From assembly GCA_963777155.1 (NCBI GenBank), contig CAVZPM010000036.1:32001-96000 (forward strand): a stretch of 64,000 nt of DNA, given 5' to 3'. Made by a program: the position numbers and the translations under genes. A model generated the notes under the pieces. It was not told the origin of the DNA, ran no database searches, and saw only the letters and a program-made list of their open reading frames with translations. This stretch comes from Candidatus Bathyarchaeota archaeon (GTDB taxonomy: Archaea > Thermoproteota > Bathyarchaeia > Bathyarchaeales > Bathycorpusculaceae). Positions within the stretch are counted from its first letter, which is position 1; each line of letters starts with the position of its first letter. This document shows positions 1,569 through 62,533 of the stretch, piece by piece.

Positions 1569-1694
1569 ATGAGCGTTATGAGTAGAAAAAATAAGAATAC
1601 ACAACTTGAAAGACAAAAGAAAGAACAACGTGAAAAAGAAGCAAAAAAGAAAGCTATGTTAAATCAGCTTCCTCCTAAAGGAAAAAAGAAATAA
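1569..1694 (+). CDS. 41-aa highly basic microprotein
   Basis: MSVMSRKNKNTQLERQKKEQREKEAKKKAMLNQLPPKGKKK; AT-rich TATA-like sequence near 1507-1513. Confidence 0.5.
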   Translation: MSVMSRKNKNTQLERQKKEQREKEAKKKAMLNQLPPKGKKK

Positions 1695-1713
1695 TCTTTT
1701 AAGCTTCACTGGA

Positions 1714-2349: not shown

Positions 2350-2501
2350 TTTTTATCCGTAGCAAAGTGCTTCTAGAGCATACTGCTTGTTTTCCAGTTT
2401 AGCCTTTTTTTGTCCAACGGCAAATTCAACTTTTAGTTCTTTCAGGCGCCTTCCATTTACTGTCTCATGAGTAATACTAGTTCGCATTCATACAAATGAC
2501 A

Positions 2502-3062
2502 CTAAAACCCCTTTCCATCATGGAAGTTTTTATGAGCCTTTAATATTTCTTCGCGCCACTTGTTTTCCCAGCTTGCCCAACCAGTTTTCACAAGACCCTC
2601 CCTGACCTGCGGTTTCTCGGCAACCCACTCCAGAAATTTCCAAAAACGCCTCTTATCCTGCAAAATTTCCTCCGGCACACCTTTTTCGACGCACCATCGC
2701 GTGTAGGCTTTTTCAACAAGTGGCTTGAGTTCGCCCGTGGATTCGACTCTTTGAACGTTGAATCCTTGATTCTGAAGGTACAATGCTAAGCTGGAGAGGA
2801 CATATTCTGAACTGACTCTAAAACAAGTTTCTCCATCAGGCTTCATAACAGCGATAATTTCGTTGGCAATTTTAATTGCATCTTCCAAGTATTTTTTGTT
2901 GTGGAAGTTTGGCGATTGAAAGGATGCTGTTGGGATTCGGCGTTCCATCAACATTGGATGCGGAGGCTTGAGTGCGCCAACGACTACGCCAAGTAGCAGG
3001 TCGCTCCATCCCGAAGCATCAATAATAATTGTTTTGTCAGGAAGAAAACAATCTAACGCCAA
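2502..3062 (-). CDS. Hypothetical protein with RNase H-like N-terminal motif
   Basis: TIIIDASGWSDLLLGVVVGA resembles the RNase HII first strand (GIDEAGRGP..GPVVVA). Confidence 0.7.
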   Translation of the reverse strand: MALDCFLPDKTIIIDASGWSDLLLGVVVGALKPPHPMLMERRIPTASFQSPNFHNKKYLEDAIKIANEIIAVMKPDGETCFRVSSEYVLSSLALYLQNQGFNVQRVESTGELKPLVEKAYTRWCVEKGVPEEILQDKRRFWKFLEWVAEKPQVREGLVKTGWASWENKWREEILKAHKNFHDGKGF

Positions 3063-3288
3063 ACTCTATCACTCAAGGATTAGGGATTATTGCCGGGTTG
3101 GCTTTTCTATCTTTTGCTTATAATATAGTAATATTAGGGGAAAATAACCAACAATCGCAAAACTCTTTTAGTGCTCTTTGTGTGGGTGTGGAGGCATGTT
3201 GGCGCTTCTAATCCTGTATCACATACCTGGTTTTTCTTTCTGAAGTACTAAACTACGGTTTCATAAGAAATACAGTTAGAAGAGTTGG

Positions 3289-3364: not shown

Positions 3365-3733
3365 GCACGGTTTCAATTAGCACTTGTTTTATTTATTGTT
3401 AGAGGTTTAATGGGTGTCTTTTTTCTTAATAAGGATTCTCAATTAGATGGATGAATCGTTTGGTGGTAATGGGGTAAAATTTATGAGAAATCTTACGGTA
3501 TCTTCCGTGCGCTGTTTTGCGCTTTTTTACACTTTTCTATGTCATTTTCCATGAGCCAATATTGGATATGTTAGGTAATTAGAAGCCATAGTGTGCAATA
3601 GGTTTAATAAACCACAAAACTTAAATATTAGAGACGTTCATCAGGTAAGTTTGCGCGGGCCGAATGTACTATTTTCTAGCCAGATTGGCCTATGGTGACG
3701 GTTCTACGCATGTTTAAATCGAGGTAGAAGAGA

Positions 3734-4678
3734 TTGAGCAAAAAAGAAACACCACCACGCACATCACAGCGCTTAGTTGACAAGTGCCCAGAGTGCGGTA
3801 GCGAGAATTTAGTTCACGATTATGATACAGGAGAAACCGTATGTGGCGACTGCGGATTAGTCGTCTACGAACAGATGATGGATAAAGGACCAGAATGGCG
3901 CGCATTCACCCAGGAAGAAAAAGCTTCCAGAAGCCGTGTCGGTGTCCCAACATCCTACTCAGTACACGACAAAGGATTATCCACCGCGATTAGCCAAGTT
4001 GACCGCGATGCGTTCGGACGCAAACTACCCCTATCCACTAGGTTGCAGATGTGGCGTCTACGCAAATGGCAAATCCGCTCACGTGTCCATTCATCTGTCG
4101 ACCGAAACCTTGCCCAAGCCATGGCTGAACTTGACCGCTTATCCGACAAAGTCTACATTCCACCACCAATTAAAGAAAAAGCCGCCGTCGTCTACCGTAA
4201 AGCACTCGACAAAGGCTTGGTCAGAGGCAGATCAATTGCCGCCATTGCTGCTGCAGCTTTGTATGCTGCTTGCCGCGGAAGCGGAACCCCACGTACACTA
4301 CGAGAAATCGCTGAAGCAAGCTTAGTCGACAAGAAAGACGTTGCAAGATGCTACCGACTTCTGCTACGTGAACTCGATGTCCACATGCCAATCGCCGATC
4401 CATTAACCTACGTCTCCAAAATCGCTGAGAAAACAGGCATTTCAGGCAAAACCCAAGGAGCAGCCATCCAAATTCTCCGAGAAGCAAGACGGAAACGTGC
4501 CGCGGCGGGAAAAGACCCGATGGGTTTAGCCGCAGCCGCCCTCTACATTGCGTGCTTGCAAAACAACGAGAAGAAAACCCAAAAAGACATAGCCGAAGCT
4601 GCTGGCGTAACCGAAGTAACTGTTCGCAACCGCTACAAGACCCTCAAAAAACAGTTAAATCTAGAGTTGCCTGATTAG
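3734..4678 (+). CDS. tfb: Transcription initiation factor IIB (TFB)
   Basis: Zn ribbon CPECGS..CGDCG, GPEWRAF B-reader, two cyclin repeats, VTEVTVRNRYK. Confidence 0.98.
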   Translation: MSKKETPPRTSQRLVDKCPECGSENLVHDYDTGETVCGDCGLVVYEQMMDKGPEWRAFTQEEKASRSRVGVPTSYSVHDKGLSTAISQVDRDAFGRKLPLSTRLQMWRLRKWQIRSRVHSSVDRNLAQAMAELDRLSDKVYIPPPIKEKAAVVYRKALDKGLVRGRSIAAIAAAALYAACRGSGTPRTLREIAEASLVDKKDVARCYRLLLRELDVHMPIADPLTYVSKIAEKTGISGKTQGAAIQILREARRKRAAAGKDPMGLAAAALYIACLQNNEKKTQKDIAEAAGVTEVTVRNRYKTLKKQLNLELPD

Positions 4679-40529: not shown

Positions 40530-41642
40530 ATGTTGAGTGCTGTGATAAGAAGAAAAAAGTTTTCTCGAGGTTGTCTAAGTATCGGTAAAATTAGTAGGAG
40601 CTTGTCCTTAACTTTCATTTTGATTTTGTTTCTATCAAGCTCCATTATAGAGGGAACTGCTTGTGCTCAATCAACTAAACCCTTAGCACCAAAGTTTTCT
40701 ATGCAATTCCCAAATGACAGCACATTACAGTTTGTAATAGAAAATCAAGCATTCACAAGCAGCGATGTTGTTAACTCAATAGTTTATAATTATAGAGCCA
40801 AAGAACATTACTCAGGCTTATGGGTACGCCATGGAGGAGATGGTAAACTCCAGTCTGACACTGAAAATACACTTTGGGAAATAAGAATTGACACATTTAA
40901 TTTTTTACCAGACGTTGAAACTAAAAGTGTTGTTAAATCAAATCCTACTTTAATGGATTTTCAGCTTCGAGCACAAACTGGCAACTACTCAAGAGCGTAT
41001 TTTTACGGTCAGATGCCAGGTACCTCTATCCCAACTGATGGGTACTGGGAAACTACCTTCAATGAATCAGAGACAAGTGATTGGAGTGACACAATTACAG
41101 TTAACCTAAATGATAAAATTACGTTAACGCCAAGCCAACTCGCTTCACTTAATCCGACATTAAGTCCTGGTCCATCATTAACGCCCACAACTACAGGTTC
41201 CCCAACAGTTACTCCAACAGCTACACCCTCTTCATTTCAGTTTGATTTATCAGCTGGAGACAAAACCTACCCAGTTATCGCGTATAGCAACTCCACAATT
41301 ACCGATTTAACGTTTAACTCTGCCACGAAAGAGCTAAACTTCAAAGCAAACGGACAAACCGGAACAATAGGATACTGCAGAATCACTATCCCAGCTAATC
41401 TTGTATGGGGAGAACTATCAATCTACAAAGACGAAACACTGCTGGTAGAAAACGTAGATTACACCCAATCTAACGATGGAACAAACAATATACTAGAAAT
41501 TAACTACAATCACAGCACTCACAATTTCAAGATAATTGGAACACACGCAATCCCAGAGTTTCCCTGGTTGATGCTCTTACCTCTATTTCTGTTTGTACTA
41601 TCTTTAGCAGTGCTGATTAGGAAGAGAAAAATTTCTCGGTAA
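40530..41642 (+). CDS. Surface glycoprotein with PEF-CTERM sorting signal
   Basis: Signal peptide, PT linker, stalk domain, IPEFP + TM + RKRK. Confidence 0.88.
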   Translation: MLSAVIRRKKFSRGCLSIGKISRSLSLTFILILFLSSSIIEGTACAQSTKPLAPKFSMQFPNDSTLQFVIENQAFTSSDVVNSIVYNYRAKEHYSGLWVRHGGDGKLQSDTENTLWEIRIDTFNFLPDVETKSVVKSNPTLMDFQLRAQTGNYSRAYFYGQMPGTSIPTDGYWETTFNESETSDWSDTITVNLNDKITLTPSQLASLNPTLSPGPSLTPTTTGSPTVTPTATPSSFQFDLSAGDKTYPVIAYSNSTITDLTFNSATKELNFKANGQTGTIGYCRITIPANLVWGELSIYKDETLLVENVDYTQSNDGTNNILEINYNHSTHNFKIIGTHAIPEFPWLMLLPLFLFVLSLAVLIRKRKISR

Positions 41643-45892: not shown

Positions 45893-48664
45893 TTGGAAAA
45901 AACAACGGCTTTGACTATTCTTTTAGTTGTCACAGTGGCCTTAGCAAGCTTATCTGTGACTCCGAGGATTGCCGCTGAGCCATTGCATGGAGCCATTACG
46001 ATAGGTTTTGATGATGCAATGCAGAGCCAATTTGATTATGCTTGGCCTTTGATGCAGGCCAGAGGAATTGTTGGCACATTCTACACTGTTTCGAGCTTTA
46101 TTAGCGATTTTTCTGGTGATTATAATCGTATGGGTTTGAATGAACTTCACACTCTGCAGAATGCCGGCAACGAGATAGGAAGCCACAGTGTCACTCATGA
46201 GCATTTTGAAACCATGACCGACGCTGAAATTGAATATCAATGTGGCGTTTCTCAACAAGTCTTGCGGGCCAATGGGTTTTCAGCCAACAATTTTGCTTTT
46301 CCTTATGGCGATACAAACGATCCTAACGCCGAGCATATTGATTCGATTGTATCCCAATATTATAGGTCGGCGCGGTCAGCGTATTATTATCCGGAAGTTT
46401 TGTCGTTTCCGATAGATATGTTCAGGTTGCCGGGTTTTCCAGCTGAGACCGGCGATAGCACCGTTTTGTCACGAGCCATAAGTGCGGTAGACCAAGCTTA
46501 TAATGAAAATGGCTGGGTTCAAATTTACTTCCACAACGTAATTCCAGATGTCTATAATGAGCCATATGCGATAAGTGCCCAAGATTTCGAGGCTTTTCTT
46601 GACTATGTTGTTGCCAAAGGTATCCCGACTGTCACTGTAAACCAAGCATTAGACGGGGGTGTAGCGCCTCTTTCTACTTCGATAAGCCCGACCTCCGCAA
46701 GATTAGATGTTGGAGGATCACAAGTCTTTACTTCCTCTATCTCGGGGGGTGTCTCACCTTACTCTTACCGATGGTATCTAAATGGTAGCTTTACAGGCGC
46801 CACTGGTTCAAATTGGGCATTCAGTCCAACGCAGGCGGGACATTATAATATATACCTTCGAGTGACTGACAATGTAGGCACCGTAACTAACTCTAACACA
46901 GTTACTAATATCACTGTATATGGGGCTCTCACTTCTTCAATCAGCCCTACCTCCATGAACTTGACCGTTGGAAACACGCAACAGTTCACCTCAACGGTAA
47001 CAGGTGGATTTGCACCTTACACTTATCAATGGTACTATGCCAACAACACCGCCATAACTGGAGCTGGAGCAACAGGCTCAACTCTAAACTACAAGGCAAA
47101 TTTCACGGGAATCTACAACATCTACCTAAACGTCACAGATGCTCTCAACTACAAAGTGAAATCCAACACTGCCACCCTCAATGTCTATTCGCAACCTTCA
47201 GTAACTATCAGTCCAATCACAGCTAACATGACCATTGGAGGCACACAATTGTTTGACTCCAATGTAGCAGGCGGACTCATACCTTATACTTATCAATGGT
47301 ACTACGTAAATGGTACCGCAATATCAGGCGCGGCAACCTCAAACTTGACGTACAGAGCTAACTTCACTGGAAGTTACAGTATCTATCTTAACGTAACAGA
47401 CAACCTTAACTATAGAGTGAAATCCAATATAGCCACCTTCAATGTGTACTCACAACCGACGGTTACAATTAATCCGACCTCCCTAAATATGACCGCCGGG
47501 AAAACGCAACAGTTTACCTCAACAGTGACAGGCGGACTTGTACCCTACAGCTACCAATGGTACTACGCTAACAACACAGCAATCGCAGGAGCCACAAACC
47601 CAACGCTAAATTATAAAGCGAATTTCACAGGAAGTTATAGTATCTACCTAAACGTCACAGACAACCTCAACTACAAAGCAAAATCAAATTCTGCAACCGT
47701 CAATGTTTACTCACAACCAACCGTCATGATTGCTCCGACCTCATCCATTCTTTATTATGGTCAACTCCAAACATTTAACGCCTCCACTATAGGAGGCTTA
47801 GCGCCCTACACCTACCAATGGTACATAAACAACACCGCGGTACCACAAGCCACATATCCCGTCTGGATATTTACGCCCAAAGAAAATGGCAACTATCGAA
47901 TCCACCTCAACGTTACTGACACCTTAGGCAGTGAAGTAAAATCCAACATCGCCAGCGACATCAACGTCTATGGAGTCTATCTCATGATCGATTCGCAAGC
48001 AAGCTACTTATTGGGCGAGCAAGTAAGCTTGAAAGTGACTATTTTGAACCAGCAGAATCCCAAACTAGAAACATCGCTAGCCTTGACAATTACTGGACCA
48101 GCAGACTACAGTTTCCACGTTTTTCAACCCATAAATGTGTCAGCCAATTCGGCAGAAGAATACAGTTTCGTCTGGGTTGTTCCCAACGTCGATGGCACAT
48201 ATATTGTAGAGGCTATTTTGGTTCCAGCCCAGTTAACAGCTTACGACTCAAAATGGCTACAAACAAATGAGCAACCTAACCAATTTGGGTCAAGTGAGGA
48301 TAGTTTTGTTGTTTCACAAAGCGTGGCAAGCGTTGAATCTGCCTTTTTTATGCTCATTGGGAGCCAAGTCCTTGGCAGCGTTTGCAGTCTATTGTTTTTA
48401 AAGCATAAAGGCAAGAAGACTTGGCTGCTTTTAAGTGCGTCCCCAATGTTAGGAATAAAAGTTTTGTGGAGGTTGGCTTGGAACCTTCACAGTAAATTTC
48501 ATCTTAAACAGCGCATTATATTTCAGGATATAAGTGGTCGAAATAATACATTGAAAACATTCTTGTTGACCTATTTTAGCAAGGGAACAGTGTGGGCAAC
48601 TTCTGGTTTTTCCAATATTTCTTTTTGGGTTAGCTTAAAGGGCAGGATTGCGTGGTTTGCATAA
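45893..48664 (+). CDS. Secreted polysaccharide deacetylase (NodB/CE4) + five Ig/PKD-like repeats + shared LTAYDxxW domain + TM
   Basis: Signal peptide; TIGFDD, EIGSHSVTH, FAFPYG, YFH; repeats; the tail after the TM may be read-through. Confidence 0.88.
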   Translation: MEKTTALTILLVVTVALASLSVTPRIAAEPLHGAITIGFDDAMQSQFDYAWPLMQARGIVGTFYTVSSFISDFSGDYNRMGLNELHTLQNAGNEIGSHSVTHEHFETMTDAEIEYQCGVSQQVLRANGFSANNFAFPYGDTNDPNAEHIDSIVSQYYRSARSAYYYPEVLSFPIDMFRLPGFPAETGDSTVLSRAISAVDQAYNENGWVQIYFHNVIPDVYNEPYAISAQDFEAFLDYVVAKGIPTVTVNQALDGGVAPLSTSISPTSARLDVGGSQVFTSSISGGVSPYSYRWYLNGSFTGATGSNWAFSPTQAGHYNIYLRVTDNVGTVTNSNTVTNITVYGALTSSISPTSMNLTVGNTQQFTSTVTGGFAPYTYQWYYANNTAITGAGATGSTLNYKANFTGIYNIYLNVTDALNYKVKSNTATLNVYSQPSVTISPITANMTIGGTQLFDSNVAGGLIPYTYQWYYVNGTAISGAATSNLTYRANFTGSYSIYLNVTDNLNYRVKSNIATFNVYSQPTVTINPTSLNMTAGKTQQFTSTVTGGLVPYSYQWYYANNTAIAGATNPTLNYKANFTGSYSIYLNVTDNLNYKAKSNSATVNVYSQPTVMIAPTSSILYYGQLQTFNASTIGGLAPYTYQWYINNTAVPQATYPVWIFTPKENGNYRIHLNVTDTLGSEVKSNIASDINVYGVYLMIDSQASYLLGEQVSLKVTILNQQNPKLETSLALTITGPADYSFHVFQPINVSANSAEEYSFVWVVPNVDGTYIVEAILVPAQLTAYDSKWLQTNEQPNQFGSSEDSFVVSQSVASVESAFFMLIGSQVLGSVCSLLFLKHKGKKTWLLLSASPMLGIKVLWRLAWNLHSKFHLKQRIIFQDISGRNNTLKTFLLTYFSKGTVWATSGFSNISFWVSLKGRIAWFA
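46667..47974 (+). repeat. Five tandem ~87-aa Ig/PKD-like repeats
   Basis: Each reads [S/T]I.P.....G..Q.F.S...GG..PY.YQWY.N...GAT......G.Y.IYLNVTD......SN....VY; rich in N-x-S/T sequons. Confidence 0.9.
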
Positions 48665-51195
48665 GACGAGAATTTATCGCTGTGTTATTAGCTTTGGGTT
48701 TAGGTTTGGTAGCGGTTGCGCCATTTGAGGCTATTTTTTGTGGGTCTGCGCCAGTTGTGACTGGTAATGACTTTGAGCCTACGATGAGTGTTCCTTTGGG
48801 TGTGGACAAAAATAATAACGGAGTCGAGGATGGTCTTGATTCAGAAATTGCCGAGCAGCTACATATGAGTAGTACAGCAAGTGACGAATACGTGAATGTT
48901 ACAGTCCTTTTGATGAATAAACCGTCGGGTGAGGATGTGGCCATCTTTTCTTCGTCCGGTGGAACCTTAACAACTGAGTTGTGGACAGAAGCTGTTTACG
49001 GTTTTGGGGGACGGATACCCTACAGTGGAATTGTTAGTTTTATTACGCAGTGTTCTGATGTGTTGTTGATTGAGAAAGAGGCAGTTTGCAATGCAACCGT
49101 GGCTTATGCGACGCGGCAAGTGGGAGCTAGACCTTATGTTTGGAGTACGTTGGGGCTTCAGGGAGATCCGAATGCTTCGTTAGCGGTTCTGGATACTGGG
49201 ATTGATTCATCGCATGTTGATTTTGCGCCCGGTTTTGGGAGTGGAGATTTTTCGAAAAAGATTGTTGGGTGGAACGATCAGGTAACATCTTCGGTTGTTC
49301 CGTTTGATGATAATGGACATGGATCTCATTGTTCTGGGTTAGCTGCTGGAGATGGATTTTTTAGTGTTGATTCTTCAGGTTACGCCACTGCCACATGGGG
49401 AGCAAACTTGGGTGCGGTTACAAGCCCTGGCACATTTTTGATTAGCGGTATGATGTTGAATAATTCGGGTGCAATAACGGTTAAGGTAAAGTGGACATCC
49501 ACTGGCACGGCTGCTCTTACAGCGGCTCCATTGTATTATGGTGACAAAACTCTGAGCACGGGGGCTTGGAGTCAAGTTGCTACGGTTAGTACTCCGAGCC
49601 AGAACACTTGGTATACTCTGACGTACAATGTGGTTTCTGTTCCTTCTGGTGGGTATGAGATGTATCATCCGCAGTTGACTTTGAGTTCTGGAACGGGAAA
49701 TCTTTATGTGACGTTTACAATGTCGTGGCCTTACGTGACACCTTCGGATGGTTTTTCGGCTTGGAAAGGTATGGCTTCTGAGTCGAAGCTTGTTGGAGTG
49801 AAGGTTCTTGATTATTCAGGTTCAGGGTCGTCCACTGGACTAATCAACGGCATTAACTGGATTATCGCGAATAGGGTAGGTTACCATATAACTGTGGCTA
49901 GTATGAGCTTGGGCTTTTCCAGCGAAGTTACGCTTGTTGATACCGCTCTTGTGAATCTGGTGAATAGCGGCGTGAGTACAATCGTTTCGGCGGGTAACAG
50001 CGGATCGGGAACCAACCGCATTTATACGCCTGGTTCAGTTGACGAGGTGTTAACTGTAGCATCTGTAGACCAGTTTGATGGAACATCTAGCTTTAGCAGT
50101 CAAGGGGGGACTTCGAGGTACACGGGTAAAACTGTGAAACCAGACATTACGGCTCCTGGGGGCAGTTTCTACGCAGTGCCTTTGTTTAGTGCAGACACGA
50201 ATTATAATGATGCTGACGGCGGGTTTTCTGATGTCACCGCTAATGATGCGGCGCCTATGCAGGGGACGTCTATGTCTTGTCCTGTAGTGTCTGGGGCTGC
50301 CGAAATTGTTGTACAAGCCATAGGAGGATATAGCTCTTGGAGCTGGACAAGAAATCAAGCCCTGATGCCTAAAACTTTGCTTTTGATGACGGCAACAGAG
50401 ACTTACCCGAATCTACGTGAGACTTCTACCTCTACTTCCAGTCCAACACTTAACCGGGGAGGAAAAGATGTGCATGAAGGTTATGGTAGACTTAACGTCG
50501 ATGCCGCAGCGGATGCCGTCCTGAAGACCTACATCGTTGGAACAACTGTGTCAGATAGCTTAGGTAGTCCACCTTCACTGGGAAATATTGCGGTTCTGGG
50601 TCAGAGATTGGCGTGGGCAAGAAACGTTCAGCTTTCTTCAGGCATACAATACAATTTCTCATTAGCCGTTCCATCCGGAGCAGATTACGATTTGTACCTC
50701 TATAATATTACGGGTAACTCCTATGGTGAACCTGTCATCGTTAATAGCGGCGTCTCGGCTGCGACTGGAGGCTTTGAAAAGATTTCCTATACGCCTTCTA
50801 ACTCCGGAGAGTATTATCTTGTTGTGAAGCGGGCAAGAGAAGACACAGGAGCGGGGCAGTTTACTTTGATAAGCACATTTAATCAGACTGCTCATCTTAT
50901 GTTGTATGCAGATCCTGATCAAGCCGCCTATGTGAGAGGGCAGTCTTTGATTTTGAAGGTTACTATGTTTAATGGGTTAGATCTTGCTTATGGGTCTGTT
51001 TTGACTATTACCGTGACTGGACCTAGTGGTTACAGCTTCTATGATTTTCAATCGATTAGTGTTACGGCAAATAGCGTTGGGGAGTACAGTTTTACATGGA
51101 ACGCACCGAATATTCCCGGAACCTATGTTGTTGAAGCTGGTCTAGCGCCATCATCATTAACTGCCTATGATGTGAAATGGGTGAATTTAACCTAA
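48652..51195 (+). CDS. Secreted S8 subtilase with prodomain, inserted beta domain, PPC-like domain and shared LTAYDxxW domain
   Basis: Triad motifs VLDTGID, HGSHCSG, GTSMSCP; oxyanion SAGNSG; DYDLYLY. Confidence 0.93.
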   Translation: MVCIRREFIAVLLALGLGLVAVAPFEAIFCGSAPVVTGNDFEPTMSVPLGVDKNNNGVEDGLDSEIAEQLHMSSTASDEYVNVTVLLMNKPSGEDVAIFSSSGGTLTTELWTEAVYGFGGRIPYSGIVSFITQCSDVLLIEKEAVCNATVAYATRQVGARPYVWSTLGLQGDPNASLAVLDTGIDSSHVDFAPGFGSGDFSKKIVGWNDQVTSSVVPFDDNGHGSHCSGLAAGDGFFSVDSSGYATATWGANLGAVTSPGTFLISGMMLNNSGAITVKVKWTSTGTAALTAAPLYYGDKTLSTGAWSQVATVSTPSQNTWYTLTYNVVSVPSGGYEMYHPQLTLSSGTGNLYVTFTMSWPYVTPSDGFSAWKGMASESKLVGVKVLDYSGSGSSTGLINGINWIIANRVGYHITVASMSLGFSSEVTLVDTALVNLVNSGVSTIVSAGNSGSGTNRIYTPGSVDEVLTVASVDQFDGTSSFSSQGGTSRYTGKTVKPDITAPGGSFYAVPLFSADTNYNDADGGFSDVTANDAAPMQGTSMSCPVVSGAAEIVVQAIGGYSSWSWTRNQALMPKTLLLMTATETYPNLRETSTSTSSPTLNRGGKDVHEGYGRLNVDAAADAVLKTYIVGTTVSDSLGSPPSLGNIAVLGQRLAWARNVQLSSGIQYNFSLAVPSGADYDLYLYNITGNSYGEPVIVNSGVSAATGGFEKISYTPSNSGEYYLVVKRAREDTGAGQFTLISTFNQTAHLMLYADPDQAAYVRGQSLILKVTMFNGLDLAYGSVLTITVTGPSGYSFYDFQSISVTANSVGEYSFTWNAPNIPGTYVVEAGLAPSSLTAYDVKWVNLT

Positions 51196-51340
51196 GTGAA
51201 TGGAAATGAAGCCAAAGGTTCTTAGGAAGGCTGCTTCTGCGACTATTTTCTTTTATTTCCTTGAAACACCTGAAACTAAAAATCTTAGAGCACTAACCCT
51301 TTATGTATTGTGCACTCAGTATTTGATGAGATGACTTCTC

Positions 51341-52369
51341 TTGGAGCTCACGAAATTACTCATCGTCATAGCAACAGTAGTAATGCTTACAATGCCTACT
51401 TCTGTGATAAGGGGTCAATCCGTCAGTTCAACAAGTTCATCCCAACTTCAGAATTGCACCTGGTTAGACCCAAGTGATGAAGGGTTACAATTATTGAAAG
51501 CAAAACCTTCAGTTTGGCAAGCGACTGCAACCAGATTGGAGAGCGCAAATATTTATTGCATCATTGTTTGGGCGGGACGGTGGAATTCAGATCACATAAT
51601 TGACTATGCTGAATCGCCAACTGTATGGAAACAGTTCATAAACACTGTTAAAGCGGTAAACCCCAACTTTGTGGTTCTTGCCCTTGTCAATGGTTGGGGC
51701 ATCGATATCAGTGACTCCGCTTACAGAGAAACGATGCTCAATGCTGTTGAGCAACTTATGTCTTCTGCGCCTTTCGATGGCATAAACGATGACTTGGAGG
51801 ATTTTAAAGGAACAAACGAGAATTTGATTGATTATTGGCAAGCAGAAGCAAGCTTGATAAAAGGCTTGGACAAAATAGCCACAGTTGACCTTGGAGTAGA
51901 TTGGCCTTACACAATTGAAGAAGTCTACCCTTATCTAACAAATTTTGATTACCTTATGCCGATGTTCTATGGAAAGATACAAGACACATATTCTCTAAGC
52001 TATTGGGACAGGATTTTATCTAATTCTCCCGTACCGGTAATCATGGGACTTGACGTTGACCCATCAGATATGAACAATTTTTCTATGTCACAACAGTTAA
52101 GTTGGATAGACCAAGCATTGAACAGCAGTTCACATCCTAACCTGGCAGGGTTTGCAATCTGGTCATACGATTTTTGGGGCACTTCAGAAGGAACAACTAA
52201 TGATTTTGCAGCATGGATCAATTGGCCAACAAAAGGTTTTGCGCCGTCGCCAATCCTCAAGCCCTGGGATATTGCAGCAATAACTTTAGTTGCAGTCACC
52301 ATAGTTGCCGTTGCCATAGCTTTGTTATATAAGAAAAGGGCAAAACCCAGAGCAGTAATGGCAAAGTGA
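51341..52369 (+). CDS. Membrane-anchored GH18-like glycoside hydrolase
   Basis: FDGINDDLE (cf. FDGxDxDxE), DYLMPMFY, GFAIWSYD; signal peptide, C-terminal TM plus KKR. Confidence 0.75.
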   Translation: MELTKLLIVIATVVMLTMPTSVIRGQSVSSTSSSQLQNCTWLDPSDEGLQLLKAKPSVWQATATRLESANIYCIIVWAGRWNSDHIIDYAESPTVWKQFINTVKAVNPNFVVLALVNGWGIDISDSAYRETMLNAVEQLMSSAPFDGINDDLEDFKGTNENLIDYWQAEASLIKGLDKIATVDLGVDWPYTIEEVYPYLTNFDYLMPMFYGKIQDTYSLSYWDRILSNSPVPVIMGLDVDPSDMNNFSMSQQLSWIDQALNSSSHPNLAGFAIWSYDFWGTSEGTTNDFAAWINWPTKGFAPSPILKPWDIAAITLVAVTIVAVAIALLYKKRAKPRAVMAK

Positions 52370-52541
52370 AATACAGCTATTCTTGAAACACAAAAAACAG
52401 CACAACACGGTGAAAAATTTGCATCGTCACTCTTTTCAGTCTAATAGACGTGTTATCCTCTAACATTTTGCTATTGAAAATTTATTCGATTGAAAAATTT
52501 AAATATAGATTTAGTTCTAAGAAAACAGTGGAGAAGAGAAA

Positions 52542-52847
52542 ATGCGAGAACCAATTAAACAGGTTAACAATTTTTCAAATAAACCTGAAAATTCTGACAA
52601 CTTGCATAGCTCCAAAAAGGAAGATATATTGAGTCTTCTTGAAATCGTAACTGGAAAAATGAAAGTTTTAGAAGATAAGAAAGATACTGTGAATCTTCTT
52701 GAAGCCTTATCCCAAAGAGCGAAATTCTTGAAAAACGAAGAACATAATCTTATTGACATAGAAAAGAACAACTGTATTTATGAAAATAGTTGTTACACAG
52801 CAAAAAATAAGAATAGCCCGTGCCCCTGCGAACTCTACAGAATATAA
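52542..52847 (+). CDS. Small coiled-coil hypothetical protein
   Basis: 101-aa ORF; 3' part uncertain. Confidence 0.5.
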   Translation: MREPIKQVNNFSNKPENSDNLHSSKKEDILSLLEIVTGKMKVLEDKKDTVNLLEALSQRAKFLKNEEHNLIDIEKNNCIYENSCYTAKNKNSPCPCELYRI

Positions 52848-52953
52848 GAAATGTTGACAATCAGTTAGCCGTAGTATCTAAATATTAGTTCTTTGTGCAG
52901 GAAAACGTTTTATTATTTCAAAGCTCCGCTTAAAGTGGCAGGTTCAATTACAA

Positions 52954-53154
52954 ATGAAACTAAATTGGATTATCACTCTTCTTGCAGTATTATTCTTTTT
53001 TGCGGTAGGCTTTCTGATACTATATGATAATTACACTCGAGTTGGAATCTGGTTTCAGTTGTCGGACCTTCATCACGAGACTTTTGCTATGTTTTCCTTT
53101 GCACTTGCTGTAGGGATACTCATAGGTGCAATCATCGTAACCATCAAGAAATAG
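52954..53154 (+). CDS. Small 2-TM membrane protein
   Basis: Two TM segments around W.Q..DLHHET. Confidence 0.7.
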   Translation: MKLNWIITLLAVLFFFAVGFLILYDNYTRVGIWFQLSDLHHETFAMFSFALAVGILIGAIIVTIKK

Positions 53155-53184
53155 AGTTGCAAGCATTAAAATCGCGAAATAATT

Positions 53185-54885
53185 TTGTTTTTTGCTGAAA
53201 GGTCTATCGGAACGAGCAAGATTTCTGAAACATCTTGTGTTTATATCATCCACAAACTTAACTATAACATGCAATTTTGCCTTAAAAGGGGAGTTGTACA
53301 ACTCAAAAAGGCTAAATCAACTATAATTTTAATTTTGATCATAACTATGCTTACAGCATGTCTCCTTGCAACTTCAAGAGTTGTTTTAGGAAGTGTACCC
53401 GGCACTATTTCAATAACTTTCGACGACGGCATGCAGGACAATTACGATTATGCATATCCGTTGATGCAAGCTAGAGGCATCGTGGGAACGTTCTACGTCA
53501 TCACAGACACACTGAGCGATTTCTCACACAATAACACCTACCTAAGCATAACCGAACTTAAGACCATGCAAAACAGTGGCAACGAAATAGGCAGCCACAG
53601 CAAAAACCACCCAAATTTTACTAACTTAACTGACCAACAGATACGAGACCAATGCAGTATTTCCAAGCAGGTATTACAATCCAATGGACTTACAGTAAAT
53701 AACTTTGCTTATCCTGGGGGTGCCCACAACGCCCAGTCAGATTCTATCGTTTCTCAATATTATCGTTCTGGTCGAGGAACATTTGGAAACATCGCAACCT
53801 GCATAATGCATCCTCCCGTGTCTCAATGGTTCATTCCAGGATTCACAGGGGACACAGGCAGCACCTCAAATGTGTCGCGGCTAAAAAGTGCCGTTGACCA
53901 AATATGCGCAGCTAACGGGTGGGCAATATTCTATTTCCATTGTGTAAGACCAACCGTTACAAGTCCTTACATGATTAGCACGCAGGATTTTGCAAGCTTC
54001 CTTGATTATATCGTTTCAAAAGGTGTAACAACGGTGACCGTAAACCAAGGTTTGAACCTTGGTAAGCTCCCTACACCTGTGCCAACTCCATCGGCAACGC
54101 CAATTCCAACACCTAGTATGTCACCGACCCCTAGTCCAACTCCAATACCCTCACTGGTTCCAACTCCCACGTTAACACCCAGTCCCACACCGACTTCAAC
54201 TCCAACAATCACACCGACTCCATCACCTGATCCAACCCTATTGCCGACGCCATCACCCTCTCCATCTGAAGCTCCAACTCCTGCACCAACTCCAACTGAA
54301 ATATCTATTCCAGCAGTCACTCCTATTCCGACAACATTGCCTACTCCAATCCCTACTCCGACTCCGACAATAAAGGCGTCGCCTTCTCCGACTCCATTAG
54401 AAACAACCGTTAAAGCAACGACGGATAGTGGTTCAATAGTTGAGCTTGCAATCAGAGGAAACATTACTAGCTCACAGATGTCCAACGTTACCATAGCAAC
54501 AAACCAATCGTCCGCAACAACAGTAACTTTTACAGTAACAGGAGAAGGCGGTAACACAGGTTTTGGGAATGTTACAATTCCAAAGAGTCGGGTACCCTAC
54601 GGAGAGACATTGACAATTACCAGTCAAGGTCAACCAACTCAAGACCAAGGCTTCACACAGGACAATGACAACTACTACGTATGGTATTCAACCCATTTTA
54701 GCAAACATGAAATATCGATTGTTTTCACAACTCTCTCTAATTCGCCTAGCCCTTCAGTTTCTCCTAACCAGGTACAGTCAAGTTTACTTCAAGAAACAAT
54801 CTTTGGACTAGTTGCCGCGGCAGCTATTTTGATGATCCTTTCAGCTATTCTTTTATTAAGAAAAGCAAGAAAAAACCAACAATAG
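53185..54885 (+). CDS. Membrane-anchored polysaccharide deacetylase (NodB/CE4) + long PT linker + stalk domain + TM
   Basis: [25 protein letters not shown]; close paralog of the 45893 catalytic domain; true start probably ~53270-53310. Confidence 0.88.
54344..54530 (+). repeat. Left copy of ~187-bp inverted repeat, inside the deacetylase CDS
   Basis: Reverse complement of 59725-59912, identical except for one extra base there. Confidence 0.92.
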
Positions 54886-55284
54886 GCTGAATCTTCAAAG
54901 AACAATTGCTTTGAGTATAACATAATAAACACTCTAAACGGCATGTTCTCCTTGCACCTGTCAGAAATTTCTTCAGTGGTTTTGGGTTTTCCTGAAGCGG
55001 GGTTGCTTTGAACCTTCTTGCCCCTGGATACGCCGCCCGCAAAATTCATTTTGTTCTCTGTGTGTGGGTGTGGGGCTATAAAAATTTACACCACACTTGC
55101 GGTTTTGCAAAGGGTTGATTTTTTGGTTTGGACTGTTTTCCTCTTGTGGTTTATGTGTGGGAAGAGGGTTTAGCCCACACAGTCAACATAGAATTTATGT
55201 TGGAGTGTGTGGGTGTGAGTGTGGAGCCATGTTAGCGCTTCTATCTTGTGTCATGTGCCTGTTTTTCTTTCTGATTTTAAACTT

Positions 55285-55440
55285 TCTACCTTTACACGCT
55301 ATGACACTGGAAGCAACCAGGGAACACACCAGAACCAAAGACATCTTACACGTCATGAAATTACTCGGCAACAAAAACATCCAAAATACCCTATTATTCA
55401 GTCCCTACCTTTCAAGAACGACGAGTTCCATCCCTTCTGA
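55285..55440 (+). pseudogene. Decayed C-terminal fragment of a tyrosine recombinase/integrase
   Basis: ..EAT.EH.RTKDILHVMKLLGNKNIQNTLLF matches the HxxRH..AT...TKDI..V..LLGH.NI.NT..Y box; His->Asn, Tyr->Phe, frameshifts. Confidence 0.75.
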
Positions 55441-55775
55441 AGGGATAGTAAAATCATCTCAGGTTTTATCTTTAAAGAGAGGCGACTGGGATAGCTAGGC
55501 ATTCTTCGTTTTTGTTATTTTGTGGCAGGATACAGCTTGAGTATATTAAAGGACTATTACTGATTCGAAATATGATTCATATTTCTGTTTACCTCAGAAT
55601 GTAATTGTATTGTCTTGTTGGTGAGGATTAGTCGGGGAAGGCGTCTATGAGGGTATTGTCTCCTAGTGGACTCAAGGAGCGAATTAGTTGGTTTATCTAC
55701 GTTAAGTGGGGTAGCTGGCGCTGTTTTGAGTGTTTAAGTCTTGCTTTTTCGAGTGTTGATGGAGGAGAAATATAG

Positions 55776-58106
55776 TTGGGTCGGCGCTGGAAGCTGTTTC
55801 TTTGTGGGTTTGCATTTTGCTTGTTGGTTGTTACGTCTTTCTCAACGGTTCTTTCTGGGTCCTTGCAGGGTGCCGAGGGTGGTGTATCCCAAGCTGACTC
55901 TAGCTTGCAGGCTATAGGAGCGGAAGCTGTAGAAAATTTCACGATTGTGGTCTTGCCCGACACTCAGTTCTACAGTGAGAGTTACCCGGGGATATTTGAC
56001 AATCAGACTCAATGGATTGTTAATGAGCAAGAAAACTTGAATGTAGTATTTGTCACGCATGAAGGTGACATCGTGAATCAAAATGCGGTGGCTCAGTGGC
56101 AGAACGCGAATCGGAGCATGAGCAAGTTCGTTGATAATGTGGCTTGGGGGGTTTTACCCGGAAATCACGATGGCGCTGCCTCTGGTGGAAGCTTGACAAA
56201 CTATAACACATTTTTTGGTTATAGCCGATTTGCAGGTGAGATTTGGTATGGGGGCCACTACTTGAGCAGCAACGCGAACAATTATGAGTTGTTCTCAGGT
56301 GGAGGAGATGACTACTTGATTTTTCATTTTCAGTATCAACCAAGTGATGCAGTCTTGGCTTGGGCTAACAGCACAATAGTCGGCTATCCTGATAGGAGGG
56401 TGATTGTTGTGACTCATGATTATCTGAATGTGGATGGATCAAGGACAACTGAAGGCAATCACATATGGAGTAGTTTTGTTGCTCCTCATGCTGATCAGGT
56501 AATGCTTGTTCTTTGTGGTCACAACCATGGCGAAGCGAGACGAAGTGATACGGTAAACGGTTTTGTGGTTCCTCAGCTTCTGGCAGATTACCAAGCTGGG
56601 ACCAACGGTGGAAACGGTTTCTTGCGAATTCTTAAGTTCTGCCCCACTCAAGACAAGATATATGTTACCACGTTTTCACCATACCTCAACAGTTATGATA
56701 ATGACGCAGATAGCAAGTTTACATTGAATTATGATATGTCAGGGGGGTTTTTGGTAAGTCTGCAATCGCCCAATGATGCAATAACCACTTTGGATAATAT
56801 GCCTGATTTCAAATTTGTCGTTTCACATTCGAATCAGTTAACGTTTAATTGTTCTTTGTGGCTGCAGAATGCGTCTTACCAGGCCATTTTTGCCAGCAAG
56901 ATTAACTTAATTAACGGTTCGCTCACCACGGTAACGCCCGACTTGCCGATTCCAAACGGTAATTGGTTGTGGTGGATAAACTGCACCGACGGTTCCGCGA
57001 GCAGCATCAGCGATAAGAGAACAATTACCATCAATGTTTTCAGAGGAGACAAAACGTTTGTGGCTAGTTACGATGGCAGCACAAGGAATTATTGGCTTGA
57101 TTTGCCGGATAATTTTGACACCGCACGTTCAACGCCGCTTGTGTTCTATTTGCATGGTTATGGAGGCAGCAGGTATTCCTATTATCAACAGTTGCCTGTT
57201 CTTAGGCAGGTATTTCAGAATCACACCTGGATTGTTGTAGCTGTTGAATGCCGAGAAAAAAGCGGGTATGACGATTGGTACATTGAACAAACAAGAAGTG
57301 ACATTACAGATGTATTGAACCTACTTAGAAATGAGTATACAATAGATTCCAGCCATATACACGTCGTGGGAGCGAGCATGGGAGGAGGCGGAGCACTAAA
57401 GTACGCCATGTTCAACCCTCAAATTATCGCCAGTTTGGTCGACATATACGGAATAACCAATTTCACTAAATTCTACAATGACGACACCCAAAACCAGTTT
57501 ACTGCTTCGCTTAGGGCAGCTTACGGTGGAACACCCTCACAGGTCCCTCTGGTCTATGCAAACGAGAGTGCGCTGGGAAACGAAGTTCGCTTCCAACATA
57601 CACCCGTAATGATTATTCATGGATCCAGTGATCTAACAGTTAATGTTGCCCAATCGCGAGCACTTAACCAAAGCTTAAGCATACTTGGATACACCGTCAA
57701 GTACATCGAGGTGCCAGGAGCAGGTCACAGTGCATCAATTGTTAACGGCAGGGAAATGGTGATTTTCAACTGGCTTAACGATCATCCTATGGGAGGCAAT
57801 ACGCACCTTCTGCTCAACATTCAGCCAAACCAAGATACTTATACAAAAGGACAATCGTTAACCTTGGTTGTGACTGCGTTTAATGAGCATACCCCCGCTC
57901 TAGAGGGCATCTTAACGTTAGCTGTCACTGGAGCGAGCGAATATGGCTATTTTGATTTTCAAACAATAAACGTAACGTATGGCTCAGTTAGAGAGTACAG
58001 TTTCGATTGGAGTATTCCAGATGTAGCCGGAACCTACGTAGTGGAAGTCAGTCTGGTTCCAGCACAATTGACGGCGTATGACACAACATGGCTAAAGGTG
58101 AACTAA
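55776..58106 (+). CDS. Secreted metallophosphoesterase + Ig-like + alpha/beta-hydrolase + shared LTAYDxxW domain
   Basis: Calcineurin-like PDTQ, GDIV, PGNHD, VTH, GHNH; hydrolase HGYGG, GASMGG, HGSSD, GAGH. Confidence 0.88.
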   Translation: MGRRWKLFLCGFAFCLLVVTSFSTVLSGSLQGAEGGVSQADSSLQAIGAEAVENFTIVVLPDTQFYSESYPGIFDNQTQWIVNEQENLNVVFVTHEGDIVNQNAVAQWQNANRSMSKFVDNVAWGVLPGNHDGAASGGSLTNYNTFFGYSRFAGEIWYGGHYLSSNANNYELFSGGGDDYLIFHFQYQPSDAVLAWANSTIVGYPDRRVIVVTHDYLNVDGSRTTEGNHIWSSFVAPHADQVMLVLCGHNHGEARRSDTVNGFVVPQLLADYQAGTNGGNGFLRILKFCPTQDKIYVTTFSPYLNSYDNDADSKFTLNYDMSGGFLVSLQSPNDAITTLDNMPDFKFVVSHSNQLTFNCSLWLQNASYQAIFASKINLINGSLTTVTPDLPIPNGNWLWWINCTDGSASSISDKRTITINVFRGDKTFVASYDGSTRNYWLDLPDNFDTARSTPLVFYLHGYGGSRYSYYQQLPVLRQVFQNHTWIVVAVECREKSGYDDWYIEQTRSDITDVLNLLRNEYTIDSSHIHVVGASMGGGGALKYAMFNPQIIASLVDIYGITNFTKFYNDDTQNQFTASLRAAYGGTPSQVPLVYANESALGNEVRFQHTPVMIIHGSSDLTVNVAQSRALNQSLSILGYTVKYIEVPGAGHSASIVNGREMVIFNWLNDHPMGGNTHLLLNIQPNQDTYTKGQSLTLVVTAFNEHTPALEGILTLAVTGASEYGYFDFQTINVTYGSVREYSFDWSIPDVAGTYVVEVSLVPAQLTAYDTTWLKVN

Positions 58107-59396: not shown

Positions 59397-61632
59397 TTAT
59401 GTGTTTTCGGGTTTTCGTCTTAAACGTTTGACGGCTAATACTGTAAAAATCAAAACTATTTCTGGAACGAACAAACCGATGGAGAGCGCATTTAAATAGG
59501 ATGCTGGTTGAGGCGTTAATAATTTTTCAAATTGTATATTTATTTGATGGGAACTAAATTGGGTTGTGTACCATACGTAAAAGTTTTCAGGATCTTGAGT
59601 GTAGCCCTGATTGCTTGCTTGTTGGCTGTCTATAAATACGGTTGGGGCGGTTCCATCTGCTATTAGAGTTTTTGGTATTGTAATATTACTGTAACCTGTG
59701 GTGCCGCTTTCGCCTGTCAGGAAGAAAGTTACTGTTGTTGCGGACGATTGGTTTGTTGCTATGGTAACGTTGGACATCTGTGAGCTAGGTAATGTTTCCT
59801 CTGATTGCAAGCTCAACTATTGAACCACTATCCGTCGTTGCTTTAACGGTTGTTTCTAATGGAGTCGGAGAAGGCGACGCCTTTATTGTCGGAGTCGGAG
59901 TAGGGATTGGAGGGCTTGTTGGTTTTGGTGTTGATACCGGCATTGATGTGGGATTTGGTATTGATGTTGGTGTTGGAGTTGATTGTGGAGTGGGCTCTGG
60001 CGTTGCGGGCGGGGAATTTGTTACTTCGAACAAATTGCTGACTCCTGTGCAATTCCCATAATTAACTGTGATATTGACGTCCGAGCCAGGAGCATTCACG
60101 GTAACTGAAGTCGAGCCTACACCATTAATGAAAGCATCAACCGTGCTAGGACTAATCGATCCTGCAGAATAAGTCAGTGAGGGCGAGCCGACATAGCTTG
60201 TAGCGGTGTTTCCATACACGTCTTTAGCCGTTACAGTTATGCTGAAAGCAGAACCAGCAGTCTGAGGACTACTGATAAGAGCAAAAGTGAAACGGTTAAG
60301 AGCTCCAGGATTAACCGTAAAGATGTTGCTTGTTCCAGACACACCCGAACCAGTTGTAAAAAGCGTAACTACAGAACCTGCACCAGTAACCGTCACTGAA
60401 CCTATCCAAACACCATTCGAGAACGAACCAGTGACAGATGGACTAACAGTGCCAGTTGAAACATTCAAAGCATTAGCTCCAATATAGTTCGCAATAAGAT
60501 TATTGGAAGCATCCTTAGCTGTAATTGTTATGTTAAACGATGTACCCGCAGTCTGAGTACCAACAGAAATAAACTCAAAATGATCAGGTGGAGGAAAATT
60601 CACGGTAACAGACACAGCAGAACCCGTAGCACCATCATAGTTAGTATCGCCACTGTAAACTACTCGGAACTGGTAACTACCAACAGTTGGAGGAATATAG
60701 GTCGTAGAAGCCGAACCACTGCTCAAAGGCACCATAGAAGCGATGTTTGTCCATGAACCAGTACCGATTTTAACTTGGAAAGTGGCCGTACCAGTCGGAG
60801 CCGCGCCTCCAGAAACACCAGAAATAGAAACAGAAGCTGTAACTGTATTATTAACGATAACTGGGTTTGGATCAACTAACGGAACTGGGACACTTGGATT
60901 AGCCTTATTTACAGTTAGAGATGCAGTACTCCCTGTTATGGTATTGTAGTTGTTGTCGCCACTGTAGACTGCGCGGATACGATAGTTGGTTCCTACCGTG
61001 TTGGGAGTATATGGATCTGAAGTTGCAGAACCAGTAGACAACGTCACTACAGCGCCAAGTTGGGTCCATGTTGAACCGCTGGTTGTAGAATATTGGAATG
61101 TTACTGTTCCCGTCGGAGTGATACCTGAAACTCCAGAAACGGTTGCGGCAGCAGTTACTGATCCTCCAAGTTGGATGGGGCTTGTTGGGGTGAGAGTTGG
61201 AGCTGGAACAGTTGGATTAGCCTTATTAACCGTTAATGATGCCGCGTTTCCTGTTGCACCATTGAACTTGTTGTCGCCACTGTAGACTGCGCGGATACGA
61301 TAGTTGGTTCCTACCGTGTTGGGAGTATATGGATCTGAAGTTGCAGAACCTTTAGACAACGTTTTGTTAGCACCAAGCGCATTCCAAGTTGTACCGCTGT
61401 CAGTTGAGAATTGGAATGTTATTGTTCCGGAAGGTGTACCTCCAACGCCACCTACAATAACGTTAGCCGTCACAGAACCGCCTAAATTGATGGGGCTAAC
61501 TGGACTAAGGCTTGGAACAGAAACAGTTGGGGAACCAGCAGCTTTGACGACTTGCGAACTTGCAAGTAGGCACATTGAAAGCAAAATCAAAAATGCTACT
61601 ACAAGCAATTGTAGTTTCTTCATACGCTTCAA
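59397..61632 (-). CDS. Surface protein: Ig-like (Big) repeats + PT linker + stalk domain + TM; one +1 frameshift at ~59788
   Basis: ORFs 59785-61632 and 59397-59816 join; the paralogous copy at 54344-54530 identifies the extra base. Confidence 0.85.
59725..59912 (-). repeat. Right copy of the inverted repeat
   Basis: Matches 54344-54530 in reverse complement, with one extra G at ~59788. Confidence 0.92.
60950..61350. repeat. Two identical 83-bp direct repeats (60950-61032, 61268-61350), 318 bp apart
   Basis: Both encode GSATSDPYTPNTVGTNYRIRAVYSGDN in successive Ig domains. Confidence 0.88.

Positions 61633-61834: not shown

Positions 61835-62533
<699 letters not shown>

Follow-up and report, generated by a model that had tools for sequence, protein, structure and literature searches.

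What does a single C-terminal domain do on three otherwise unrelated secreted enzymes? The question is raised by a 64-kb stretch of DNA (64,000 nucleotides (nt), hereafter the window) from a soil-dwelling Candidatus Bathyarchaeota archaeon, where genes for a deacetylase, a subtilase and a phosphoesterase-esterase all carry the same stretch of about 105 residues toward their C-termini. An earlier note on this DNA, made from the sequence alone, had reported a common domain of about 100 amino acids (aa) on the three enzymes, and open reading frames (ORFs), profile and alignment agree with it. Here we describe where the domain occurs, how its copies have moved between genes, and which roles suit it, our tentative preference being a portable module that would hold exoenzymes at the cell envelope.

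The domain, its copies and its predicted fold

The carrier genes and their relevant parts are given below; the coordinates of the three domain copies are the boundaries set by the hidden Markov model (HMM).

45893-48664, + strand: gene P0001, deacetylase, 923 aa; Polysacc_deac_1 and PKD/Ig_3 repeats, signal-like N-terminus, terminal domain, linker, hydrophobic helix, basic tail
47957-48268, + strand: terminal-domain copy 1, residues 689-792 of P0001, profile positions 2-105; anchored subclass
48341-48400 and 48401-48418, + strand: putative C-terminal membrane anchor of P0001, hydrophobic segment AFFML...LLFL and then KHKGKK; mean Kyte-Doolittle 1.6 across the surrounding 22 residues
48652-51195, + strand: gene P0002, subtilase, 847 aa; Peptidase_S8 (E 9.5e-38), weak PPC-like domain, signal-like N-terminus, terminal domain, stop
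50878-51192, + strand: terminal-domain copy 2, residues 743-847 of P0002, running to the last residue of the protein
55776-58106, + strand: gene P0003, phosphoesterase-esterase, 776 aa; Metallophos (E 1.7e-8) and alpha/beta-hydrolase (BD-FAE/Peptidase_S9, E 3e-14), signal-like N-terminus, terminal domain, stop
57789-58103, + strand: terminal-domain copy 3, residues 672-776 of P0003, running to the last residue of the protein

The head of P0001 is of the carbohydrate esterase family 4 (CE4) type, with Polysacc_deac_1 at residues 34-144 (Pfam, E 1.6e-13), while P0003 joins a calcineurin-like phosphoesterase to an esterase, these being its Metallophos and alpha/beta-hydrolase regions, respectively. 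All three N-termini consist of basic residues followed by a hydrophobic stretch and, judged by eye, resemble the signal peptides that the earlier note had assigned to them. That note had also put the domain at the extreme C-terminus of P0002 and P0003, with a transmembrane (TM) segment after it in P0001, which is the arrangement we see; its domain positions cover the same stretches but start 15-18 bases inside the HMM boundaries.

In P0001, 24 linker residues separate the domain from a hydrophobic segment of 20 residues, with KHKGKK directly after it. The segment is modelled as a helix with low confidence (predicted local distance difference test score (pLDDT) of about 60, and 58.6 for the model of the whole domain plus tail), and the stretch beyond KHKGKK is kept in homologues (RLxWxLHSK-like). 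This tail has a TM-like segment and a basic cluster but lacks a P-G/E-F motif, and P0001 is matched by none of the NCBIfam CTERM models.

Aligned over 105-109 columns, copy 2 shows 45% and copy 3 46% identity to copy 1; 35 columns are invariant among the three, and the invariant residues include Y52, W74, Y83, D98 and W101 (P0002-domain numbering). A profile built from them and run against all six frames of the 2.29-Mb genome scores the window copies at E 1.1e-56, 1.3e-55 and 1.5e-54 and yields only four further places, namely two full copies and two short fragments. Because the E-values are this strong and other places so few, chance likeness is excluded. Outside the terminal domain P0002 resembles the other carriers nowhere, the match being confined to the final ~100-150 residues. 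The two further full copies are as follows.

Contig C13:47267-49789 (L004): fourth copy, with a GH130-like head, four PKD repeats, the domain and a stop
Contig C36, broken off by the contig end: fifth copy, on an esterase paralogue of P0003

No Pfam (2025 copy, E up to 10) or NCBIfam (2026, E up to 1) family recognises the three window copies, which agrees with the earlier note, whose author did not recognise the domain as a described family; judged by these sequence scans, the family is unnamed in both collections. The best sub-threshold Pfam matches of the window copies are BatD (E 0.016) and MG2 (E 0.14), and CARDB is absent from the list even at E 10. In one homologue (P0024), the terminal domain reaches 26.8 bits against MG2, below the cut-off of 32.8. 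Full-text literature searches, judged by titles and the openings of abstracts, found no paper describing such a domain.

The fold is predicted to be a generic CARDB/MG-type immunoglobulin (Ig) sandwich. An AlphaFold2 model of the P0002 domain, built on a 36-row alignment, is a seven-strand beta-sandwich with a pLDDT of 94.1 and a predicted template modelling score (pTM) of 0.84. Foldseek searches against PDB gave weak matches (best E 2e-4) to Ig/fibronectin type III-like accessory domains of glycoside hydrolase (GH) families GH3 and GH66 and to complement MG domains. A structure search independent of Foldseek (VIA), from which all Z scores given here derive, placed two GH66 Ig-like domains on top (Z 13.7 and 13.0), then GH2 Ig-like domains; the neighbours also include the Pyrococcus CARDB domain 3idu (Z 11.4, root-mean-square deviation 2.2 A, 96/105 residues aligned), MG domains of C3/C4/C5 and alpha-2-macroglobulin (Z 10-11), and the carbohydrate-binding sandwiches 2c4x (Z 9.6) and 6o14, the latter from Wzt (Z 9.7). 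A protein-atlas lead with a score of 0.90 led to a cluster with MG2 on 10% of its members. The domain thus shares its seven-strand fold class with CARDB (PF07705; 3idu is Pyrococcus furiosus PF1109) and MG2 (PF01835), along with a similar sequence pattern, V-T-V-x-N after strand 2 and G-x-Y-x-V in strand 6. Unlike them, it reaches no Pfam gathering score and is single and terminal, with a conserved last strand of its own; CARDB and MG domains are mostly tandem or internal.

Position, heads and descent of the family

A family profile built from five copies was searched against 1.84 billion representative proteins and matched 231 clusters (50% identity) at E 1e-3, 136 at 1e-10 and 71 at 1e-30. 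Four of the 150 matches listed (P0076, P0104, P0113 and P0134) are giant proteins built of repeats, in three cases bacterial cadherin/Big_9 repeats; they were rejected as family members and left out of all counts because their scores come from many weak repeats. In a 90%-identity collection, 307 proteins matched at E 1e-8 among 7,999 scored candidates, and the sole organism name attached to them is "Candidatus Bathyarchaeia archaeon". The union of both searches holds 249 carriers, including four duplicates or near-duplicates of proteins of this genome, and the 3' end of the domain is present in 238.

Among these 238, the protein ends no more than 3 residues past the domain in 193, 4-15 residues past it in 6, and more than 15 in 39; the first search alone gave 108 terminal cases, 6 at 4-15 residues, 25 longer and 10 truncated (n=149). 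The end itself is nearly fixed, lying exactly four residues beyond a conserved aromatic in 159 of the 193 terminal cases (25 fall outside the pattern used). The last-strand motif is LTAYDxxW in this genus and is replaced in distant relatives (e.g., PTAIAQTQI). Most of the 39 longer proteins have a tail of the P0001 type, ~26 of them complete and ~6 in a truncated version by eye. Such a tail consists of a linker of ~25 residues, a hydrophobic FALFVLVGSQALSGVYS-like segment and a K/R-GKK cluster, often with an RLxWxLHSK-like stretch next. Only two of the 39 (P0006 and P0088) hold a clearly internal domain. In distant relatives from other Bathyarchaeia families, the domain lies at the very end of the ORF in 7/7, one of which has an extra weak internal match.

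The domain is therefore, almost always, the last folded domain of exported proteins. The earlier note had said that a profile search yielding many C-terminal copies on diverse heads would support its idea, and these counts are of that kind; confinement to three recently duplicated genes, one of the cases that it had named as speaking against the idea, did not hold, there being 231 clusters at 50% identity.

The heads are diverse. A scan of 85 carriers of 250-2000 residues (Pfam, E 1e-5) found at least 17 catalytic or ligand-binding families, with 24 of the 85 lacking any Pfam family and ~15 having only Ig/PKD/Flg_new_2-type repeats. Heads include Peptidase_S8, S9/esterase, PETase-like, Polysacc_deac_1 (CE4), GINT1_N, Kelch, NosD/beta-helix and the peptidase families C25, C1 and M10, as well as Metallophos, PTP-type phosphatase, nitroreductase, DUF362, PQQ propellers, GSDH and DUF2341. 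A crude hydrophobicity rule finds a signal-like N-terminus in 49 of the 93 matches of at least 250 residues, and many of the others are 5'-truncated metagenome fragments.

One might expect such a set of heads from a substrate-targeting module like a carbohydrate-binding module (CBM), in which the sandwich binds an insoluble polymer of soil or peat (e.g., a fungal, bacterial or plant cell wall) and so concentrates a hydrolase toolkit on it. A single C-terminal sandwich on extracellular deacetylases, esterases, proteases, GH43/GINT1_N-like propellers, and lyase-like and beta-helix proteins fits this, as do the Ig-like domains of glycoside hydrolases, 2c4x and 6o14 among the fold neighbours. However, carriers also include nitroreductase, DUF362, PQQ propellers, GSDH, and PTP and metallo-phosphatases. 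CBMs occur N-terminally, C-terminally or internally, whereas this domain is strictly terminal; no CBM family matches the window copies by sequence (Pfam, E up to 10), and the resemblance in fold is generic. We consider this explanation rather unlikely, though one to keep in mind.

How did one domain reach so many heads? The C13 copy is a chimera at the DNA level. From its PKD region into the first part of the domain it matches the P0001 gene at 81% identity, whereas its last 221 nt, which include 25 nt downstream of the stop codon, match the P0002 copy at 93%. Synonymous divergence (dS) between the two esterase genes of this genome is 0.41 for the domain versus 2.07 for the head (91 codons, noisy). 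A domain tree (46 domains, 105 columns) is poorly resolved; head labels placed on it require 27 changes, where the minimum is 8 and the shuffled mean 32.6, with 0/200 shuffles as low, and sister pairs unite unrelated heads, such as a PETase-like esterase and a PQQ propeller. The copies recombine, and the domain tree ignores head type.

One clade does stand out on this tree. The tail-bearing copies group together (Shimodaira-Hasegawa-like approximate likelihood ratio test 96; 8 of 9 rows with tails), with the P0001 copy inside, and their heads are deacetylase, GINT1_N, DUF2341 and beta-helix. Here the domain sits directly on the membrane anchor beneath PKD stalks, which argues for a membrane-proximal site of action and, with the CBM-like alternative in mind, against substrate binding there.

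Headless 3' ends of the gene are also found. Such orphan fragments, which comprise the last 24-55 codons and the stop, were found in 6 of the genus's 9 carrier genomes; this genome has two, amid a patchwork of repeated DNA.

C36:138527-138610: orphan 3' fragment, last ~24-28 codons and stop, no head, ~400 nt upstream of the esterase paralogue
C12:24425-24511: orphan 3' fragment, last ~24-28 codons and stop, no head, beside a terminase-like ORF

Most simply, they would be what deletions or replacements in carrier clusters have left behind. The C36 fragment adjoins, by eye, a PIN/AbrB-type toxin-antitoxin-like pair. The C12 fragment is flanked by a repeat of ~400-460 nt (C12:23826-24285, C12:1312-1711, C36:135483-135941 and C38:47805-48013), three copies of which are 94-96% identical to one another and 79% to the fourth. 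This repeat, possibly a mobile or viral element, overlaps an ORF of 102 residues.

The domain is under purifying selection, also on proteins without a membrane anchor. The ratio of nonsynonymous to synonymous divergence (dN/dS) is 0.28-0.29 for the domain in two esterase pairs and 0.12-0.16 for their heads; subtilase pairs are saturated. Identity between orthologues likewise shows the domain to be less conserved than the head in esterases (domain 50-75% versus head 65-84%) and in subtilases (domain 50-58% versus head 51-75% in 12 non-identical pairs, with the head at 64-75% in 11 of them), and the anchored subclass reverses the trend (domain 64-79% versus head 36-66%).

A domain that evolves faster than the catalytic heads and has a generic Ig/CARDB/MG fold without functional signature could be a structural end-cap or spacer, that is, a stalk base inherited from an anchored ancestor and kept for folding, stability or protease resistance, with no binding function. 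That no partner was found, and the rare, patchy distribution described below, would also suit it. Yet one does not expect of a spacer that it be always last and always single, with its end four residues past the aromatic in 159 of the 193 terminal cases, nor that ~35 columns stay invariant among the three window copies despite their unrelated heads. The domain has, moreover, been grafted repeatedly onto unrelated heads, in some cases by direct fusion with no other Ig domain, so it should bring something useful in itself. Taken together, the single, always last position, the fixed end, the many grafts, and purifying selection without an anchor argue that the domain has its own function and is no passive spacer, and we regard the end-cap as unlikely.

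Distribution, partners and machinery

The family is rare. It is present in 9 of 120 genomes of the genus, the window's own included, with 3-7 matches each when fragments are counted, and in a class sample of 301 genomes the narrow profile finds it in 7; a profile broadened by seven out-of-genus relatives gave no wider distribution (8/301). Carrier genomes have 1-5 full copies, mostly clustered within a few kilobases. All 12 loci found among species-representative genomes belong to Bathyarchaeota/Bathyarchaeia metagenome-assembled genomes (MAGs; 8 assemblies), and the carriers are patchily spread among soil/peat MAGs. They are congeners or near-congeners, since a housekeeping protein of the window is 81-90% identical in four and 70% in a fifth, compared with 82-91% within the genus. 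Low copy number and a patchy soil/peat distribution, as for a niche trait, and tandem clusters of carrier genes in several genomes are points in favour of the CBM-like alternative.

The subtilase head is the commonest neighbour of domain genes. We rejected the subtilase as an obligatory partner or processing enzyme since the head occurs in only 4 of 8 carrier congeners; it was also missing from 15 of 15 congeners in one search, none of them carrier genomes. Orthologous subtilase genes are broken into 2-4 ORFs in MAGs L013, L014 and L015, which are either pseudogenes or assembly indel errors. P0002 and the C13 copy are followed by ORFs that bear no relation to each other.

The earlier note had likened the domain to dockerins, the small Ca-binding helical modules of cellulosomes. 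The two have in common the idea of one module on many enzymes (dockerin/cohesin, PF00404/PF00963), but dockerins are helical and the Bathyarchaeia domain is predicted to be an all-beta, seven-strand, CARDB/MG-like sandwich, and thus not dockerin-like. The likeness fails in the genome too. This genome (90.6% complete) has no cohesin match (PF00963; controls positive) and a single dockerin, at C12:3066-3230, unrelated to the domain; a canonical cohesin-dockerin system was rejected on these grounds. In a few foreign carriers (P0027, P0226 and MAG L014), a cohesin lies directly ahead of the terminal domain; those of L014 are adjacent genes (1591-3273 and 3593-4291) and score above the Pfam cut-off.

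The other comparison drawn in that note was with the C-terminal domains of the type IX secretion system (T9SS) of Bacteroidota (PF18962/TIGR04183), and one may ask whether the Bathyarchaeia domain is a true sorting or secretion signal of this kind, read by dedicated machinery and possibly cut off in exchange for an anchor. The two are alike in size (~100 residues), Ig-like sandwich, extreme C-terminal position and diverse secreted cargo; some carriers even have C25 (gingipain/PorU-family) heads, and the genome encodes two archaeosortase-family proteins. They differ in that the Bathyarchaeia domain has no sequence relationship to those of T9SS, is found in an archaeal host and has few copies per genome. 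Pfam/NCBIfam scans of the window copies matched none of Por_Secre_tail, the CTERM models and Dockerin_1, and this genome has no PF14349 (SprA_N) or PF18962 (Por_Secre_tail) match, the control genomes likewise having none, so that this silence weighs neither way. General sorting signals and cellulosomes mark dozens of proteins per genome, whereas here there are 1-5 full copies in 9 of 120 congeners; of 8 carrier congeners, again, only 4 have the subtilase head. An archaeosortase signal consists of a short motif, a TM segment and a basic tail and is not a folded domain. The few copies per genome, the patchy distribution and the fact that no conserved non-cargo gene was found beside the clusters argue against dedicated sorting machinery. 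A cleaved sorting signal with its own machinery is probably not what we see, and we hold a T9SS-like signal of any kind to be very unlikely. The two Exosortase_EpsH (archaeosortase-family) genes score above the Pfam cut-off and lie as follows.

C21:1953-2774, - strand: Exosortase_EpsH gene
C9:77412-78212, + strand: Exosortase_EpsH gene

A possible scaffold had been proposed in the TM-anchored repeat protein at 59397-61632; it carries a different C-terminal module, and nothing ties it to the domain. Its two ORFs are both on the - strand and share 32 nt; one, at 59785-61632, has Big_3_5 repeats and a PT-rich linker, and the other, at 59397-59816, has the second module and a TM segment. They look like a single surface protein that a frameshift has broken in two. 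The second shared C-terminal module and further surface proteins are listed here for completeness.

40530-41642, + strand: second module; the copy ends in IPEFP, a TM segment and RKRK, PEF-CTERM-like, with no NCBIfam CTERM model matched
53185-54885, + strand: second module
59397-59816, - strand: second module
61835-62533, - strand: 232 residues, N-terminal TM segment and collagen-like G-x-y repeats (Pfam Collagen, E 1.3e-9)
C36:99476-102169 (- strand), C37:50561-53239 (- strand) and C11:66221-68929 (+ strand): examples of ~10 paralogues of ~880-900 residues with a signal peptide, C-terminal Ig-like domain, PT-rich linker, DQYFVP motif, TM segment and RKRP end

The second module has the pattern G-x-x-G-Y-x-N-I-T-I-P-K ... 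Y-V-W-Y ... H-x-I-x-I-x-F, after which come a linker, a TM segment and a basic tail. In the genome, a profile built from its three copies matches ~10 ORFs, at the C-terminus in every case. The ~890-residue DQYFVP paralogues look like the main C-terminally anchored surface-protein family of this genome; weak matches of the terminal-domain profile to about ten of them were rejected, as theirs is a different Ig-like domain, followed by PT linker, DQYFVP, TM segment and RKRP.

A proposed portable module at the cell envelope

We tentatively prefer to see the domain as a portable module for localisation, one that keeps exoenzymes at the cell envelope, rather than as a processed sorting signal or a dockerin. 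The Ig-like sandwich of ~105 residues is lineage-restricted, passes between genes through recombination inside its own coding sequence and, under this proposal, would be non-catalytic. In a minority subclass, to which the deacetylase belongs, the linker, transmembrane helix and basic tail behind the domain would provide retention. Most members, including the subtilase and the esterase, would instead rely on non-covalent binding of the domain to a membrane-near component of the envelope. Both this binding and its target are what we infer; the family, its fold class and terminal position, the diversity of heads, the recombination, the rarity and the purifying selection rest on the results above. 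The earlier idea of a portable tag for targeting or assembly is thus kept in part: the domain is terminal, sits on diverse heads and was undescribed, but no partner or machinery was found for it and copies number 1-5 per genome.

The proposed role is that of SLH (PF00395) and CWB2 (PF04122), non-catalytic terminal modules that retain exoproteins, to which the domain has no sequence or fold relationship. The PGF-pre-PGF domain, which precedes archaeal PGF-CTERM anchors, is like one subclass of the Bathyarchaeia domain in standing directly before a C-terminal membrane anchor. A further difference is that most members here have no anchor, and retention is in their case a proposal.

Several results weigh against this localisation role. 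The predicted fold is generic and carries no functional signature, and the lower conservation of domain than head in subtilases would suit a cap with a purely structural role. A shared substrate-binding module would also be in keeping with the set of enzymes (deacetylase, esterase, protease and propeller/lyase-like heads). The neighbourhoods of domain genes at the 12 related loci revealed no partner, scaffold or machinery; neighbours there are other domain-bearing enzymes or unrelated proteins without counterpart in this genome, and the sole recurrent non-carrier is a Laminin_G_3 (ConA-like) protein with no homologue in this genome at E 1e-10. The family is also so rare that it cannot belong to the basic envelope biology of these archaea, and its presence in so few congeners limits its general importance. 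A two-copy complex prediction for self-association of the domain scored 0.00, with controls not run, and weighs neither for nor against binding.

A bolder version is that the domain is a non-covalent archaeal docking tag for a small, horizontally exchangeable exoenzyme toolkit, with the tag's conserved coding sequence as the recombination handle for capturing new catalytic heads, the orphan fragments as scars of these captures, and the envelope, possibly membrane-anchored members of the same family, as the docking target. We find it distinctly doubtful; if true, the tag would be a functional analogue of dockerins and T9SS C-terminal domains, independently invented in Bathyarchaeia.

Bathyarchaeia are among the most abundant uncultured archaea of sediments, soils and peat and are thought to live by the breakdown of extracellular polymers. 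Whatever its role, the domain is a handle for finding swappable secreted hydrolases in metagenomes and a clear natural case of domain shuffling via recombination inside a shared module, and it is small and, with a pLDDT of 94, predicted to fold well, so that it can be expressed for binding tests. Should it prove to bind substrate, it would found a new CBM-like family; should it turn out to dock enzymes onto the envelope, it would rank among the first non-covalent modules for surface retention to be described in archaea.

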